Notes: generated from the sequence alone by a model not told the origin. 41,089 nucleotides of DNA from a virus (IMGVR_UViG_2563366819_000008), one strand, 5' to 3'. Numbered from the stretch's first letter, positions 3,406 to 34,893 are shown. Translations and numbers: made by a program.

Positions 3406-6400
3406 TTAACGTTCTTCCAGAGACTGAACCCGCTCTTTTATCTTATCCATTTCTCTGCGCTGCCATGCTGCCTCGATATAGAATAAGAGATCAGGTCTGA
3501 CCCCCCATCTAGATCCTGCTGGCGTTATTTCAACGCGCTCAATGATGTCTTCTATTACCATCACTGGATTATCATCCTCATCAACAATGATGCTCCCGTC
3601 ATTATCAGTCAGCGGCATTTCCCTTTGGCCAGTAATGACGTCATCATATACTGCGGGATAATCGTCATAGCAAAGAAAGGCATAGCGGCATGTTGTGCTT
3701 TCTTCTTCCATGAGTCCGTGAGAAATAAGAACATCACGAAGTTGCTGCGCGATTACACCATGATGTATCCTCGCCCCTTCTTCCCCCTTTATAGCGACAG
3801 CGTTCAGCCATTTATAAGCGATATACCTGACGTCACCCCAGGCATCCAGCAATGCTTCGTCAGGAGAGACCGGCTCTGTCTTTAATGTTCCGTCACTGGT
3901 AACCACAGGATTGGAGCCAAGATAAACTGTCGAGAACCTGTTTCCCGGACCACCAAGAGCATTTACATTATCAAGATAAGGTTTAACATCTCCGTTCTCA
4001 AAAAGATGTTCGAGTGCGTTATATACCGCGCGACGTGGAGTACTGCTTCCGGAACCATGCAACGTTATCATTGCACCATCTGCTGAAGACGTTGTTTCAC
4101 CGCCGCTAACGATTAATCTCTGAGCGGTAACATCATCAGACGGTACTTTCTTCGCAATAATGGCGTAATTACCCTCAAGTTTGACTTCCGCGCGAACTTG
4201 TCCTGATGTACCTGCATGGACAGTCAGTGACTGGACGGCAACATCATCTGTGAAATCAACGGGTACAGGAACCGTCCTCACGCCTGACGTCGACATAAAA
4301 GTAGGAAGCGTTCTGTTAGGAGTGGCTCCGTAGACAAAATCCCTTGAAACAAATTCTTCCTGTTTAATTTTCACCCTGAAACAATACAAATCAGCCGGGT
4401 GACCATCGTGAACATAAGGATATTTTCTGTTGTTATCCCCTATGCTCCATGGGTTTAGAAAGTCTTCTCCACCGAAAATGTAGTACAGCCAGTTGTCTTT
4501 GATACAAACTGAACCAACACCAACCGCAGAGTTAACTATTCCGCCCTGATAAATCTGATCAGTAACATTAACCCACTCTACATTATCCAGACTCCACTCA
4601 TTGACGTTAACTCTGGTCATAAATGTTCTTGGATAATTTCCTGCATAACGGTTATCAGGCTCTCCTCCTTCCCACTCACCAAATGCGCGCTCACTGCCAA
4701 AAATAATCAGCTCATCGCCAACTTTGGCAAAAGGAAGGTTTGAGTGATGAACATTATTTGGGAAGCGAAGAGAATTCCATGATGTACCTAAATCAGAGCT
4801 TCTGTGCAATGAACTACCGGGTTGAGTACTTAATGTCCCCCTGGTCGTCAGATACAGAATGCCATCATAATATTTTACACATGGCTCAGATGCATTCGCC
4901 TCATATTCTGCAGGTATGCGTCTGCGAACAAAGCTACCAGGAGAACCGAAAGCATCAGAGAAATAGAGTATCCCAAGCTCGCGTGGACCAATATCACCAT
5001 TATGGTAGCCAACAGCAAAACTGTTATCGCTAATCGTCGCAAAACTGTGAATCTCAGTAACAGGAGTGCTTCCGTCAACAAAAGAAGGAATAGTTCCAAG
5101 ACTGGTTTTTCTCCATGGTGACGAGTGAAATGATGTACCAAAACTCCAGTATCTACCCTCGTTATTCTGATCCACATCCTGGGTATTTTGCGTCGTAACT
5201 GTAAAAGTATTTTTATCAATAACAGTAGTCACCGTCATATTCCCGGTAACACCTGTAACACCAGAGTTTGAGAAGTTGACAAAATCACCAGCAAATAATC
5301 CGTGATCAGTAATGCGAATATAAGCGACTTGCTGATTTGCTGCTTTCGTTATACCACCATAAACGCGAAGGCTGCGACTCATTGGGCGATCCCACAACTC
5401 TGCAACCTGCAGTTTATTTCCGCTCACGGTCCGCGTCTCAATTACAGCAAAAAGGCGATTTCTGACAACCCCCATACTCATGCAGTGATAGTTAACTGTG
5501 GGATAGTTTTCATGTAAATCTGTAAGCCATTCCGGCGTTGTCCAGGTCTTCCCGTCATCTCCTGAGCGAACCCATGCAACATGGAGGTTATTTACACCAT
5601 GGCGGTCTCCAGCCATAAAAGGCGCATAGATGACATTGTCATATACAAACGTTTTATCCTGCGTCCAGGCGTTGTACCACGGTGTATCTGTAATTTTAAA
5701 TAACTCTCCCTGGATAAAATCTTCAGAAGCATAAAAAAGAGGCTGGCCCGGTATTCTCTCAAATAAAAAACGAGCATTTTTAAATCGACTGACATCCGGA
5801 AGAGTTGATACTTTAAAAGTAAGCCCTAATCCGTCAATTTTATAACCTGGAGATGAGGCTTCAAGGCACGCGCTTATTGCAGTGGAGTCGTCATTTATAC
5901 CATCACCAACAGCTCCAAAATCTTTGGGGCTAATAGCATCACGCATTTTATCCTGGAACGTTCGGTACACAGCCCCAGAACCATACTGAATAAACCAACC
6001 AAAACCACCAACAACCCCGGCAATTGCAGCATCAACATAATTACGCATTGAGCGATTATTTACAGCGTCCTGCTCAAATGATGGATCTGCAAGGTTAGAA
6101 ATTTTGTTTTGCTTTGCATCGTAATATTTTGCAAGCAGAGAGGGCTTCATCAATGCACGTCTGAACCACCCAAAACATTGCTGGATCAGCATCGTCAGGT
6201 AGTCAAAGGCATCTTCATGCACTTCGGGGAAAAATTTTCCCTGATTGCGAAGGTCTGTCTCCTGCACTACATCAAGCACACGATCTATCGTAATTCGCCA
6301 TCCAGTAGCAAGCGGAGACGGAAGAACCACAGAACCGCCACTATAAGTGCCCGCCCCAGTTACCGTATAACCGGTATCCAGGACCAATTCTGTTACGTTC

Positions 6401-6525
6401 CCGTTCAGGTCAGACACCTGAACAACCAGGTCTGATTTTCTGAAAATTCGAAAAGTATACGGAAACGATGTCGTAACGCCGTTACCGGTGTATTCGTTGT
6501 GGTCAACTTCGGTTGAGACCGTCAT
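3406..6525 (-). CDS. Tailspike protein (1039 aa) with beta-helix glycosidase-like body and C-terminal intramolecular-chaperone domain
   Basis: N-terminal particle-binding type domain; DFGAVGDGINDDSTAI motif typical of pectate-lyase-fold tailspikes; C-terminal region resembling self-cleaving chaperone domains of endosialidase-type fibres. Confidence 0.8.
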   Translation of the reverse strand: MTVSTEVDHNEYTGNGVTTSFPYTFRIFRKSDLVVQVSDLNGNVTELVLDTGYTVTGAGTYSGGSVVLPSPLATGWRITIDRVLDVVQETDLRNQGKFFPEVHEDAFDYLTMLIQQCFGWFRRALMKPSLLAKYYDAKQNKISNLADPSFEQDAVNNRSMRNYVDAAIAGVVGGFGWFIQYGSGAVYRTFQDKMRDAISPKDFGAVGDGINDDSTAISACLEASSPGYKIDGLGLTFKVSTLPDVSRFKNARFLFERIPGQPLFYASEDFIQGELFKITDTPWYNAWTQDKTFVYDNVIYAPFMAGDRHGVNNLHVAWVRSGDDGKTWTTPEWLTDLHENYPTVNYHCMSMGVVRNRLFAVIETRTVSGNKLQVAELWDRPMSRSLRVYGGITKAANQQVAYIRITDHGLFAGDFVNFSNSGVTGVTGNMTVTTVIDKNTFTVTTQNTQDVDQNNEGRYWSFGTSFHSSPWRKTSLGTIPSFVDGSTPVTEIHSFATISDNSFAVGYHNGDIGPRELGILYFSDAFGSPGSFVRRRIPAEYEANASEPCVKYYDGILYLTTRGTLSTQPGSSLHRSSDLGTSWNSLRFPNNVHHSNLPFAKVGDELIIFGSERAFGEWEGGEPDNRYAGNYPRTFMTRVNVNEWSLDNVEWVNVTDQIYQGGIVNSAVGVGSVCIKDNWLYYIFGGEDFLNPWSIGDNNRKYPYVHDGHPADLYCFRVKIKQEEFVSRDFVYGATPNRTLPTFMSTSGVRTVPVPVDFTDDVAVQSLTVHAGTSGQVRAEVKLEGNYAIIAKKVPSDDVTAQRLIVSGGETTSSADGAMITLHGSGSSTPRRAVYNALEHLFENGDVKPYLDNVNALGGPGNRFSTVYLGSNPVVTSDGTLKTEPVSPDEALLDAWGDVRYIAYKWLNAVAIKGEEGARIHHGVIAQQLRDVLISHGLMEEESTTCRYAFLCYDDYPAVYDDVITGQREMPLTDNDGSIIVDEDDNPVMVIEDIIERVEITPAGSRWGVRPDLLFYIEAAWQRREMDKIKERVQSLEER

Positions 6526-6628
6526 GTTAAATCTCCAGATAGTCGCAGCACCCGTTGCGCCGCATATCTGGTTATTCTATTACCTGAAAAACCACATATG
6601 GATAAAAAGACTATAAATACCAATAGAT

Positions 6629-6645
6629 ATTACCTTTCGGGTAAT
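6629..6645. promoter_or_regulatory. Operator-like palindrome ATTACC-TTTCG-GGTAAT
   Basis: Perfect 6-bp inverted repeat with 5-bp spacer in the divergent region between tailspike and 6721 gene; same motif recurs 10 or more times. Confidence 0.6.
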
Positions 6646-6682
6646 TTGCAAAACGTGCTGGATAGCAAACAAATTATTTGTT

Positions 6683-6700
6683 ACTGTATAAACATACAGT
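6683..6700. promoter_or_regulatory. LexA (SOS) box TACTGTATAAACATACAGT
   Basis: CTGT-N8-ACAG with AT-rich centre, about 20 bp upstream of RBS ggagaag and ATG at 6721. Confidence 0.7.
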
Positions 6701-6720
6701 TATTGCATGGAGAAGATAAG

Positions 6721-6978
6721 ATGCAGCAGTATCACTATCCACTGGAAGACGGATTTACCGAAAGGATTCACACGCCGGGAGGCGTCAGGTCACTGGTGGA
6801 GGGATCGCACTTGATGAAATTACTCCGGGATCTCGATAAGGATGGATTTAATGTCGATGGCCCACTTGCCGAACTGACTGCACTGATTAACTACGTCACC
6901 AGCTCACAGATGTCTATGCAGGATCTGCAAACACATCTCGACTATTGTGCCGAACAATTACGAAAACAAACCAGATAA
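6721..6978 (+). CDS. Small SOS-controlled protein, paralogue of the C-terminal domain of the downstream antirepressor
   Basis: 85 aa; about 45 percent identical to the C-terminus of the 7296..7952 product (shared LAELT...DLQTH/DIQTH block); LexA box immediately upstream. Confidence 0.5.
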   Translation: MQQYHYPLEDGFTERIHTPGGVRSLVEGSHLMKLLRDLDKDGFNVDGPLAELTALINYVTSSQMSMQDLQTHLDYCAEQLRKQTR

Positions 6979-7008
6979 GGTTTGCAATTACCAAATGGAG
7001 TGCTTATA

Positions 7009-7025
7009 TTTACCTTTGCGGTAAA
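7009..7025. promoter_or_regulatory. Operator-like palindrome TTTACC-TTTGC-GGTAAA
   Basis: Same TTACC-N5-GGTAA motif. Confidence 0.55.
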
Positions 7026-7115
7026 TTTACATCGCACTCCTCTTGTGCCATAGTAATCGGGCACTGGCAAAATCCAGTGCCGGGATTGGTCTCCCGGATT
7101 ACTAAGTGGCGCATA

Positions 7116-7137
7116 CCACGCCAGACGTGGTTTTTTT
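7116..7137 (+). terminator. Intrinsic terminator (CCACG/CGTGG hairpin plus T7)
   Basis: ccacgccagacgtggttttttt; lies in the 270-bp leader between operator 7009 and ant start 7296. Confidence 0.5.
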
Positions 7138-7295
7138 ATGCGTATAGCACAGTCATGCCAGAATTATGGTGGGCTGAATGGGGGTCCGAAAGGACGCCGG
7201 TACCACTTAGGCCGGTAAGACCAACTCCGTTCAGTTCACCACCATCTGATTGGTCTCAGCGGTGGTGATGTAATTCGCTAAGTGGAGACGCCATC

Positions 7296-7952
7296 ATGAA
7301 CGCTCAACTCATCCCCGTATTCAACGGCACTATATCTAACGAAACAGCCCTACTTTGTAATGCCCGCGATCTGCACGCTTTTTTAGGTGTTAAAAAGGTG
7401 TTTGCAGCATGGATTACAAATCGCATATCAGAATACGAATTCATTGAAAATCAAGACTATATTTTGCTTTCCAATTTGGGAAAGCAAACATCTGGTAGAG
7501 GCGGCCACAACCGCAAAGAGTACCACCTCACCCTTGATACAGCCAAAGAGCTGGCGATGGTCGAGCGTAACGAAAAAGGTCGTCAGGTACGACGCTACTT
7601 CATTGAATGCGAGAAACGTTTAAGACAACAAGAAACAAAAGTGGAGAAGGTCTTGTCAGGCTTCATGCCCGCCATTATGGAGGCGATCAAGCTGGAAGAC
7701 AAAAAAGAATACAGTGCCCCGCTGAAGCCCGGCTACCGCAGCCTGATTCATTCGCCGTCTGGTGTTCTCGGCCTGACGGAGAACTCACTGCTGATGAATC
7801 TGCTGAACCAGTTACAGGAAGACGGGCACGACGTATCGGGCGCGGCGGCGGAGCTGACCACCATGTTCTGCTACATCGTCGGTGTGAGCAAATGCCTGCG
7901 TGATATCCAGACGCACGCGGAGTACATCAACGACAAGGCAGGGTTCTTCTGA
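7296..7952 (+). CDS. Antirepressor (AntA-like N-terminal domain)
   Basis: N-terminal LIPVFNG...[10 protein letters not shown]...[16 protein letters not shown] resembles AntA/Rha-type antirepressor domains; lies in an immI-like position next to tailspike. Confidence 0.6.
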
Positions 7953-8023
7953 CGGGCGGTGGCACAGGGATGTGCCTTTAAATAATTCTGTACAGATTGC
8001 AGACTGTGGGTGAATAGCGTACT

Positions 8024-25978: not shown

Positions 25979-26055
25979 GTGGCATTAGCTCAGTCGGACA
26001 GAGCAACCGCCTTCTAAGCGGTTGGTCGCAGGTTCGAATCCTGCATGCCACGCCA
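25979..26055 (+). tRNA. tRNA-Arg, anticodon UCU (reads AGA)
   Basis: Acceptor stem GTGGCAT/ATGCCAC, D arm GCTC/GAGC, anticodon stem ACCGC/GCGGT with loop CTTCTAA, T arm GCAGG-TTCGAAT-CCTGC, 3' GCCA; similar but not identical to host argU. Confidence 0.85.
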
Positions 26056-26140: not shown

Positions 26141-26218
26141 ACAGCAGGACGCCATTGCGATGACTTCATGCTGTAAACCAGTACAGCCACGGAAGGCATA
26201 ACTCATTGCTTCCAGTTC

Positions 26219-34308: not shown

Positions 34309-34893
34309 ATGAAAAGTATCCAGGACGTCCGCAGGCAAAATCTCAACGACTTGATCGACCGTGAATTCAATGGTGTTCAGACGCGGATGGCAGAAAAACT
34401 TGGAACTCAGGCAAATCTGGTAAACCGCTGGGCTCTTGGCAAGAAGGTTATCGGCGACCAGGTTGCACGAAAAATTGAAGCTGCCGCCAATAAACCCCGT
34501 AACTGGCTTGATATCGATCGCTCGCTTTCTCAGGAAGGTTTTCAGCCTGTCGGCCCAAGCGACATTGGCCAGCTGGCGGCTCACAACCTGGAACGCTGGA
34601 TGAGCGAAAGCCGCGACCTTTCAACACAGGGAAAACTTCACCGCGCATCCGGCGTAGCCCAGGTGACAATCAGCCGCCTGTTAAACAATGAGGTCAGCGT
34701 TTCCATTTCCACCCTGGAGAATGTTGCATCCGCATTCGGGCGTCACGGCTATGAATTACTGATTCACCCGCACGACCCTGCGACCATCAACTATGATCGC
34801 TCGCGCTACGCATTGTTACCCGAAACCGAGAAAGCAAAGATCGAAAGTTACATTGAATTTGTCATCAACCAGAACGAAAAAAACAAACAATAA
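34309..34893 (+). CDS. Repressor-position protein with two tandem HTH domains and no LexA-like autopeptidase domain
   Basis: Two HTH_XRE-like segments (QTRMAEKLGTQANLVNRW and HRASGVAQVTISRLL); divergent from cro; own terminator. Confidence 0.55.
   Translation: MKSIQDVRRQNLNDLIDREFNGVQTRMAEKLGTQANLVNRWALGKKVIGDQVARKIEAAANKPRNWLDIDRSLSQEGFQPVGPSDIGQLAAHNLERWMSESRDLSTQGKLHRASGVAQVTISRLLNNEVSVSISTLENVASAFGRHGYELLIHPHDPATINYDRSRYALLPETEKAKIESYIEFVINQNEKNKQ

Follow-up and report, generated by a model that had tools for sequence, protein, structure and literature searches.

The element at positions 7061-7137 of the window, by which we mean the whole stretch of viral DNA analysed (41,089 nucleotides), very probably encodes an IsrK-family RNA that carries the target copies of an antisense module of the P1 immI type, a module that gates a prophage antirepressor. 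Three lines of observation support this reading directly, namely membership of the family, colinearity with P1 and the three-way covariation of the pairing elements. Taken over 16 loci and with the match to the C4 family downstream, the same evidence bears out the initial annotation, which had proposed a small RNA or an attenuating leader exerting antisense control over ant in the manner of immI regions. The element is the target-mimic partner of this control (a1/b1, seqA-like) and not the antisense RNA itself.

Features of the isrK-C4-ant module and of the Rep/Ant system, in window coordinates
Feature	Position	Strand	Basis or remark
Further operator copy, upstream of small ant	6630-6644
LexA box CTGT-N8-ACAG, in front of small ant	6684-6699
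Small Ant, homologue of the SPC32H antirepressor	6721-6978		vs 5D50_E, E = 4e-47
Operator TTACCTTTGCGGTAA, inverted repeat, probable Rep site	7010-7024	.	adjoins the -35 of the isrK promoter
Predicted sigma-70 promoter of isrK	7026-7054	+	promoter scan; predicted start near 7061
-35 of isrK, TTTACA	7026-7031	+	17-nt spacer to the -10
Extended -10 of isrK, TGcCATAGT	7046-7054	+
IsrK-family small RNA (a1/b1, seqA-like): hairpin 1, hairpin 2, linker, terminator	7061-7137	+	Rfam RF01394
Hairpin 1, GCACUGG/CCAGUGC	7061-7067/7074-7080	+
Hairpin 2, CGGGA/UCCCG	7081-7085/7092-7096	+
a1, TTGGTCT	7086-7092	+	loop of IsrK hairpin 2; complements C4 a'
b1, CTAAGTGG	7102-7109	+	linker before the terminator; complements the C4 b' loop
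Intrinsic terminator, ACCACG/CGTGGT, T run from 7132	7115-7137, stem 7115-7120/7126-7131	+	terminator scan and isrK alignment
C4 antisense RNA: 17-bp closing stem, two hairpins, 3' CCA (7242-7244)	7162-7246	+	Rfam RF01695
b', CCACTTAG	7203-7210	+	loop of the second C4 hairpin; complements b1 and b2
a', AGACCAA	7218-7224	+	single-stranded C4 junction; pairs with a1 and a2
a2, TTGGTCT	7250-7256	+	4 nt past the C4 match
Conserved GGTGGTGA	7261-7268	+	complements the 3' strand of the C4 closing stem, TCACCACC (7236-7243)
b2, CTAAGTGG	7278-7285	+	overlaps the ant Shine-Dalgarno GGAG (7284-7287)
ant, predicted second antirepressor, 218 aa: N-terminal AntA and C-terminal SPC32H-type Ant-related domain	7296-7952	+	ATG 7296
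tRNA	25979-26052		Rfam scan at curated threshold
Rep homologue (SPC32H repressor)	34309-34893		vs PDB 5D50_A, E = 4e-42

The window is an epsilon15/phiV10-like (Uetakevirus) prophage of E. coli with a Rep/Ant system of the SPC32H type. Phage phiv142-3 is 98.7% identical to it over 6560-7960 and 100% identical over 7000-7300; the latter segment has an identical copy in E. coli IAI39 and is matched in 467 of 5,426 complete E. coli genomes, with at least 99% identity in 71 of these. The isrK and C4 RNAs carry no annotation in the records checked (phiv142-3, phiV10 and IAI39), and at this place the phiV10 GenBank record gives a 'putative rho-independent terminator' and an 'anti-immunity protein' only. 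Our comparative set consisted of the window and 15 further loci (16 in all) from several phage groups: Uetakevirus loci (phiV10, HEMP4, TL-2011b, Tyrion and Kp4865-1), lambdoid or Stx-type loci (CP-1639, phiP27, 2H10, Ayreon, IdasGreatGrand and SW-37) and loci of other Klebsiella phages, of Hafnia and Yersinia phages and of APSE-7. All 15 other loci present isrK, then C4, then an antirepressor-type, BRO or small gene. The two RNAs lie on the same strand in the window, 24 nt apart, a spacing of about 24 nt being found in every locus, and the first long ORF (at least 60 aa) begins 46-57 nt past C4 in the 16 loci.

Scanning the whole window against Rfam at the curated thresholds gave three matches: the tRNA, isrK and C4. 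The isrK match is full-length, covering model positions 1-77 on the + strand with 67.7 bits (gathering score 50; E = 1.6e-12), and because it lies above threshold we assign the flagged element to the IsrK family. A permissive Rfam scan yielded in addition a match to RF03163, c4-a1b1 ('a1, b1 targets of C4 antisense RNA'), at 7048-7100, whose score of 39.9 bits is below the gathering score of 46.7. Both stem-loops seen in the initial annotation were recovered (7061-7080 and 7081-7096), as was, within a base or two, the intrinsic terminator that it had placed at 7116-7137. The length of about 110 nt assigned to the RNA did not hold: since the promoter sets the 5' end near 7061, IsrK would measure about 77 nt. 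Folding, which had been suggested as a check, came out in favour of a structured RNA: the segment 7026-7140 folds with -45.9 kcal/mol (z = -4.66), and none of 200 shuffled sequences folded as well. Across the 16 loci 94% of hairpin 1 and 96% of hairpin 2 are paired, and four of the seven pairs of hairpin 1 show compensatory changes; covariation in the terminator is uninformative because MAFFT aligns the terminator columns poorly. By homology to the IsrK RNA of Gifsy-1 (PMC4825925), the element would give rise to a discrete short transcript.

The single operator/promoter initially annotated at 7009-7025 resolves into an operator, which stands (7010-7024), and a separate promoter downstream of it (7026-7054). 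The promoter stretch TTGTGCCATAGT is invariant in seven Uetakevirus-type loci, promoter-like -35 and -10 elements occur at the same place upstream of isrK in eight of the nine other loci, and in P1 the annotated P1c4 -10 stands seven nt ahead of the isrK-like match. A 5' end at 7061, like the efficiency of the terminator and the excision of C4, is predicted from sequence features. The operator motif, TTACC-N5-GGTAA with at most one mismatch, is present in 13 copies in the window against 0.67 expected, a number that none of 100 shuffled sequences reached. These 13 sites cluster around the ORF of the Rep homologue, and phage SPC32H has the same motif in the region of its ant promoter; in the seven Uetakevirus-type loci the half-sites of the operator are invariant and its spacer is variable. 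Judging from the distribution of the motif and the position of this copy, the operator is probably bound by Rep. Another candidate, TTGCAA-17-TATATT (6982-7010), was rejected as the main promoter, since its conservation is confined to close relatives and does not extend to the Klebsiella loci.

The terminator does lie well before ant, the start of which had been correctly placed at 7296 (ORF 7296-7952), but the gap between the two holds the C4 RNA, which the initial annotation had missed. C4 is matched over model positions 1-87 with 61.2 bits (gathering score 45; E = 1.4e-9), and the RNA folds with -41.2 kcal/mol (z = -5.52). Its closing stem is 100% paired in the 16 loci, with compensatory changes at five of 17 pairs, and the tRNA-like arrangement of this stem followed by CCA is invariant in the alignment. 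The c4 RNA of P1 is excised by RNase P, which uses the closing stem and the CCA; by analogy, the same two features would be the RNase P determinant of C4 in the window. Just downstream, GGTGGTGA is nearly invariant in the 16 loci (one compensatory change, in phiP27). In the minimum free energy (MFE) structure of the read-through RNA it pairs with the closing-stem strand of C4 (TCACCACC), possibly as an alternative helix (GGUGGUGA with UCACCACC), for or against which the near-invariance with its single compensatory change does not speak.

The two RNAs and the ant leader share two short pairing elements, for which we follow the letters of the annotated P1 record (the APSE-7 record uses the opposite letters). 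Within the window a1 and a2 are identical in sequence, as are b1 and b2. TTGGTCT stands at a1 and at a2, with its complement in the C4 junction, and CTAAGTGG has three occurrences in the whole 41 kb, namely b1, b2 and, as the complement, b'. Both a' and b' are unpaired in the Rfam structure and in the MFE structure. Column-wise pair counts were made on the 16-sequence MAFFT alignment for the a pairs and the helices only. The a1:a' pairing is 100% maintained in the 16 loci, with compensatory changes at three of six pairs, and the a':a2 pairing about 97%, with compensatory changes at four of seven pairs, the a2 element of APSE-7 being scored as unpaired because it is shifted in the alignment. 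The a elements fall into four types: GACCAA/TTGGTC, CGCCAA/TTGGCG, GTCTCAA/TTGAGAC and GTTCCAA/TTGGAAC.

The b' loop has at least nine different sequences among the loci. As MAFFT leaves b1, b' and b2 out of register, the b elements were assessed by an alignment-free comparison of cognate and non-cognate loops: the longest stretch exactly complementary to the b' loop had a mean length of 7.2 nt (isrK) and 8.4 nt (leader) for cognate loops and of 4.4 nt and 4.9 nt, respectively, for non-cognate ones. The b' loop CCACTTAG of the window is matched by CTAAGTGG at b1 and b2; the corresponding sequences are CCTTTTAG and CTAAAAGG in phiV10, CCTTGTTAG and CTAACAAGG in APSE-7, and CCGATAAC and GTTATCGG in 2H10. 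Over the whole structure the covariation score was 0.28, compared to 0.14 in shuffles and at most 0.10 for slid partners. The a':a2 and b':b2 sites co-vary in the 16 loci; in the window, b2 overlaps the ribosome-binding site of ant, the next ORF downstream.

The product of ant matches the AntA family of Pfam (PF08346, E = 4.2e-26), and in its C-terminal 74 aa (residues 137-210) it shares 42% identity with the small Ant encoded upstream (E = 3e-16). From the AntA domain and the homology to SPC32H Ant, a protein of known structure (PDB 5D50), it is predicted to be an antirepressor and would presumably bind Rep. As far as these features can tell, the prophage appears to set two antirepressors against one repressor, one gated by LexA and the other by C4 and IsrK. 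An ORF over C4 that would couple translation in the manner of icd or orf45 was considered and rejected, such ORFs being absent or in differing frames in the 16 loci. In the window, the frame opening at the conserved AUGGUGGG (ATG 7166) closes after three codons (TGA 7175). We regard such a coupling ORF as a trait of individual members and not of the RNA families as such.

These elements suggest a regulatory scheme, in which we infer where the transcripts end, how they are processed, and in which direction and how strongly each regulatory step works. Transcription would start near 7061, from the promoter abutting the Rep-type operator, and many transcripts would end at the terminator to give an RNA of about 77 nt. 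Read-through would produce an RNA comprising C4, to be cut out of the leader, and the ant mRNA. C4 would pair with a2 and b2 through its b' loop (CCACUUAG) and its a' junction (AGACCAA) and, since b2 overlaps the Shine-Dalgarno sequence of ant, we propose that ant is untranslated when C4 is bound. Because IsrK holds exact second copies of both targets, we further propose that it competes for C4: free IsrK would sequester C4, either as such or within the long transcript, and thereby turn ant on, as shown for the IsrK RNA of Gifsy-1. C4 pairing with b1 of a nascent transcript would, for its part, favour the terminator and bring about feedback attenuation as in the CI/seqA system of P4. The roles of decoy-activator and of C4-dependent attenuator would act in opposite directions; they are non-exclusive and both are compatible with the data, which favour neither.

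The predicted folds bear on both roles. The read-through RNA (7061-7310) has an MFE of -100.3 kcal/mol, compared to a sum of -88.3 kcal/mol for the modules folded separately; in this structure a1/b1 pair in cis with a'/b' (7081-7109 with 7203-7229), and b2 and the Shine-Dalgarno sequence are free of C4 pairing. In free IsrK, according to equilibrium folding alone, the terminator hairpin (probability 0.019) loses to a more stable fold in which the 3' half of b1 takes part (-29.4 versus -26.5 kcal/mol). With b1 masked, the terminator probability becomes 0.996; masking a1 changes nothing. For most relatives this probability is already 0.74-1.0 without masking and rises modestly, and the switch is strong in few loci. 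We therefore put forward the attenuator arm as a hypothesis for the sequence type of the window.

The same arrangement raises the possibility, in our view a rather doubtful one, that IsrK links the LexA-gated and the RNA-gated antirepressor circuits of the prophage and acts as an RNA feed-forward amplifier over the Rep/Ant switch. As the gap between small ant (6721-6978) and isrK is devoid of a terminator, SOS transcripts would end at 7137 with an a1/b1 tail. If the link existed, this tail would be an SOS-inducible sponge for C4, licensing translation of the AntA-Ant fusion; in the uninduced state, C4 on b1 would flip the anti-terminator fold to the terminator and hold the operon off.

The element could also be a purely cis-acting transcriptional attenuator that limits the transcription of C4 and ant, the released short RNA being functionless. 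This reading is unlikely, though by no means negligible: a good intrinsic terminator stands about 55 nt into the transcript, the terminator is predicted to compete with the alternative fold in a b1-dependent way, and the CI/seqA system of P4 works by premature termination (PMC4825925, PMC10111431). However, attenuation alone leaves a1 unexplained, since masking it does not affect the terminator, and its place in the loop of a hairpin is typical of RNA-RNA kissing contacts. Moreover, the short IsrK RNA of Gifsy-1 is stable and regulates its own read-through transcript in trans, as supported by mutant and compensatory data (PMC4825925). A pure attenuator and the main model are non-exclusive and partly compatible. 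It seems improbable, on the other hand, that the region is mainly the 3' end of the LexA-controlled ant (6721-6978), its terminator simply ending that transcript. According to the terminator scan, no + strand terminator lies between 6978 and 7115, the one at 7115-7137 being the first past the stop codon of the upstream ant, and the phiV10 record annotates a putative rho-independent terminator alone at the homologous site. Yet the IsrK element has a conserved promoter of its own, and the same RNA is found in lambdoid, APSE, Yersinia and P1 phages, which have no SPC32H-type ant upstream; in SPC32H itself, where the module is absent, ant ends at a different hairpin directly past the stop codon. 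A plain terminator would need neither two extra hairpins nor a1/b1 elements that co-vary with C4.

Nor is it at all probable that the RNA is a trans-acting, Hfq-dependent sRNA directed mainly at host mRNAs and not at the C4/ant circuit of the phage. The name of the RF01394 family ('isrK Hfq binding RNA') points this way, as does the 3' end of IsrK, a terminator followed by a U run. The same can be said of the conserved loop of hairpin 1 (GCAAAAUC), which has no complementary partner in C4 or in the ant leader; its complement GATTTTGC is absent from the + strand of the window, so that no + strand transcript of the window complements the loop. Still, the sole parts of IsrK that differ among the loci co-vary with C4 and the adjacent leader, as self-targeting predicts. 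We find it barely credible, finally, that the stretch is protein-coding, either through a 107-aa ORF with a TTG start (6945-7268) or through short ORFs over C4. The frame at 6945-7268 is indeed open, and the records of Hafnia phage yong2, phiP27, 2H10 and Ayreon have CDS features over the homologous stretch, some phage records labelling it 'Ash family protein', 'hypothetical protein' or 'immunity region'. But no ORF keeps its frame or its extent from locus to locus, several of the 16 loci have none, Pfam gives no match for 6945-7268 or 7155-7268, substitutions in the RNA helices are compensatory, and two curated RNA models match above threshold.

An IsrK-family target-copy element paired with C4 accounts for a 230-nt 'intergenic' stretch that is unannotated, reduced to a terminator or called a hypothetical CDS in phiV10-group phages and in RefSeq E. 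coli genomes. Both this kind of module and the link between its halves are already known and curated, as the literature attests (PMC4825925, PMC10111431, PMC7313666), and the copy in the window, unannotated in the records checked, brings no new principle. Its presence implies that epsilon15-like prophages of the window type have two antirepressors with differing triggers, one LexA-gated and the other RNA-gated. For annotation pipelines, isrK followed by C4 can be treated as one immunity module, and b' and a', as specificity determinants, would predict which prophages share RNA immunity.

In the account of Citron and Schuster (1990), in so far as it is cited in PMC7313666, the immI region of P1 and P7 comprises the c4 antisense RNA, its a1/b1 and a2/b2 targets, icd and ant. 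The order in the P1 record (AF234172) is the C1 operator Oc4 on the -35, promoters, a1, b1, c4, a2, b2, icd and ant, and the a1/b1 stretch matches the c4-a1b1 model with 51 bits and, weakly, the isrK model with 35 bits, a terminator-like hairpin included. The function of a1/b1 is annotated there as 'putative' only. P1 resembles the window in having an operator on the -35, a promoter, a1/b1 hairpins, c4 with the C4 fold and its 3' CCA, a2 just past c4, and b2 on a ribosome-binding site. In P1, however, b2 lies on the ribosome-binding site of icd, on the translation of which ant depends, whereas in the window, which has no icd, it lies on that of ant itself. The repressor is C1 in P1 and a Rep of SPC32H type in the window, and the antirepressors are unrelated in architecture, that of the window combining AntA with an Ant-like domain of the Rep-binding type.

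Phage P22 has an immI region as well, in which ant is controlled by the sar antisense RNA, a true cis-antisense RNA encoded on the opposite strand; P22 also uses the Mnt and Arc proteins. The likeness to the window is that a small RNA limits an antirepressor, that the tailspike gene is adjacent and that the phage is temperate and short-tailed. Unlike sar, the RNAs of the window are all on the same strand and pair through short dispersed repeats.

The IsrK RNA of Gifsy-1 exists as short terminated and as read-through isoforms, the short one activating in trans the translation of the downstream antirepressor-like gene anrP (PMC4825925). This activation acts via a small upstream ORF, orf45, translationally coupled to anrP; the central part of IsrK base-pairs with about 30 nt located downstream in the long RNA, and a processed RNA, STnc1160, arises downstream of IsrK (PMC4825925). 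The Gifsy-1 locus (IsrK, orf45/STnc1160, anrP, isrJ) and the window have in common an RNA of the same Rfam family with its own promoter and, downstream of it, a structured RNA (processed in Gifsy-1) and then an antirepressor-like gene. The pairing of the IsrK middle is reproduced in the read-through MFE structure of the window as that of a1/b1 with a'/b'. An orf45-type ORF is, by contrast, present in Gifsy-1 and not in the window, and the same is true of isrJ, the permissive Rfam scan of the window having found none downstream of ant. Because the ORF of the window closes after three codons and is unconserved across loci, the details of Gifsy-1 are not directly transferable. In Gifsy-1 the outcome is AntQ toxicity, to which the window has no known counterpart.

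Hershko-Shalev et al. (2016; PMC4825925) likened the IsrK RNA of Gifsy-1 to seqA of P4. The immunity of P4 relies on the CI RNA with seqA and seqC and on premature transcription termination of the replication operon (PMC4825925, PMC10111431), and relatives of P4 CI and seqA are reportedly detected by the Rfam profiles for C4 and isrK (PMC10111431). Compared by description, P4 shares with the window a processed antisense RNA placed between upstream and downstream target copies, and binding of C4 to b1 is predicted to favour the terminator in the window in a P4-like manner. P4, though, operates by premature termination, whereas in the window one target copy lies on the ribosome-binding site, so that a translational block is expected. 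In APSE phages both RNAs lie beside a BRO gene, with a'/b' matching the region upstream of BRO (PMC7313666).

The Rep/Ant antirepression system of SPC32H has been described (PMC9638917). It shares with the window Rep, a small Ant preceded by a LexA box, and the same operator motif and LexA-box arrangement. Unlike the window, SPC32H is devoid of the isrK-C4-ant module: a terminator and then leftward genes come directly after its ant. In the phiV10/phiv142-3 group the RNA-gated second antirepressor is an addition to this system.

The C4-controlled ant gene is a fusion, with an AntA domain (PF08346) at the N-terminus of its product and a C-terminal segment of 74 residues that shares 42% identity with the small LexA-controlled Ant encoded by the same prophage. 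This architecture suggests that ant specifies a second, RNA-gated antirepressor, which would target the same Rep repressor as small Ant. Using small Ant as a tblastn query, we found only one Ant-like place in phiV10, and two or three in phiv142-3, ZX5, HEMP4 and TL-2011b.

Features of the window (positions without a locus name) and of related phage loci (L numbers)
Feature	Position	Remarks
Operator TTACC-N5-GGTAA	6630-6644	precedes small Ant gene
LexA-box-like CTGTATAAACATACAG	6684-6699	precedes small Ant gene
Small Ant gene	6721-6978	85 aa; close homologue of SPC32H antirepressor Ant (PDB 5D50_E, E = 4e-47)
ant (fusion)	7296-7952	
TTACC-N5-GGTAA starts	6630, 7010, 8025, 25642, 28788, 28806, 31853, 31915, 33854, 34191, 34239, 34951, 35013	
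Rep homologue	34309-34893	matches PDB 5D50_A, E = 4e-42
Tailspike	3406-6525	minus strand; 1039 aa
tRNA gene	25979-26052	Rfam tRNA, 73.3 bits
Additional CTGT-N8-ACAG match	26171-26186	close to tRNA gene
CDS over isrK-C4	L009 588-1271; L013 731-1390; L015 631-1176; L016 370-1206	
CDS over isrK-C4, ZX5		record MW722083
isrJ	L014 (Salmonella phage SW-37) 1617-1691	101.7 bits

Two short segments, one in the small RNA IsrK and one just after the antisense RNA C4, are conserved. The octamer GGTGGTGA (7261-7268), located 3' of the C4 target site a2, is almost invariant across the 16 loci compared. Its complement lies in the closing stem of C4, on the 3' strand (7236-7243), so that pairing of the two is a possible alternative helix to C4's own fold; one compensatory change in this pairing is observed, in phiP27. 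The loop of IsrK hairpin 1, GCAAAAUC (7067-7074), is kept in 11 of the 16 loci, with similar forms in TL-2011b (GAAAAAUC) and P1 (GCAAAUUC); no complement of this loop was found in C4, the ant leader or the rest of the plus strand of the window.

Several phage records carry protein-coding genes across the isrK-C4 stretch, under the names 'Ash family protein', 'hypothetical protein', 'putative antirepressor' and 'immunity region'. Most likely, what was called as an ORF in these records is structured RNA. In the Gifsy-like locus of SW-37, isrJ lies 3' of isrK-C4 and an antirepressor-like gene, an order that agrees with the published isrK-orf45-anrP-isrJ; the window differs in that no isrJ follows ant.

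Elsewhere in the window, the tailspike gene matches a region of IAI39 whose CDS is named 'endosialidase catalytic beta-propeller domain-containing protein' in RefSeq, a name that suggests specificity of the phage for a polysialic-acid (K1-type) capsule. The tRNA gene may be phage-borne or may mark the attachment site.

The 6630-6978 region is probably the SOS-triggered switch for prophage induction; SPC32H has the same layout of LexA-box-like site and operator before its Ant gene. With up to one mismatch allowed, the operator palindrome occurs 13 times in the window (0.67 expected), the copies being spread across the prophage and clustered near the Rep homologue, a scattered layout similar to that of P1 with its many C1 operators.
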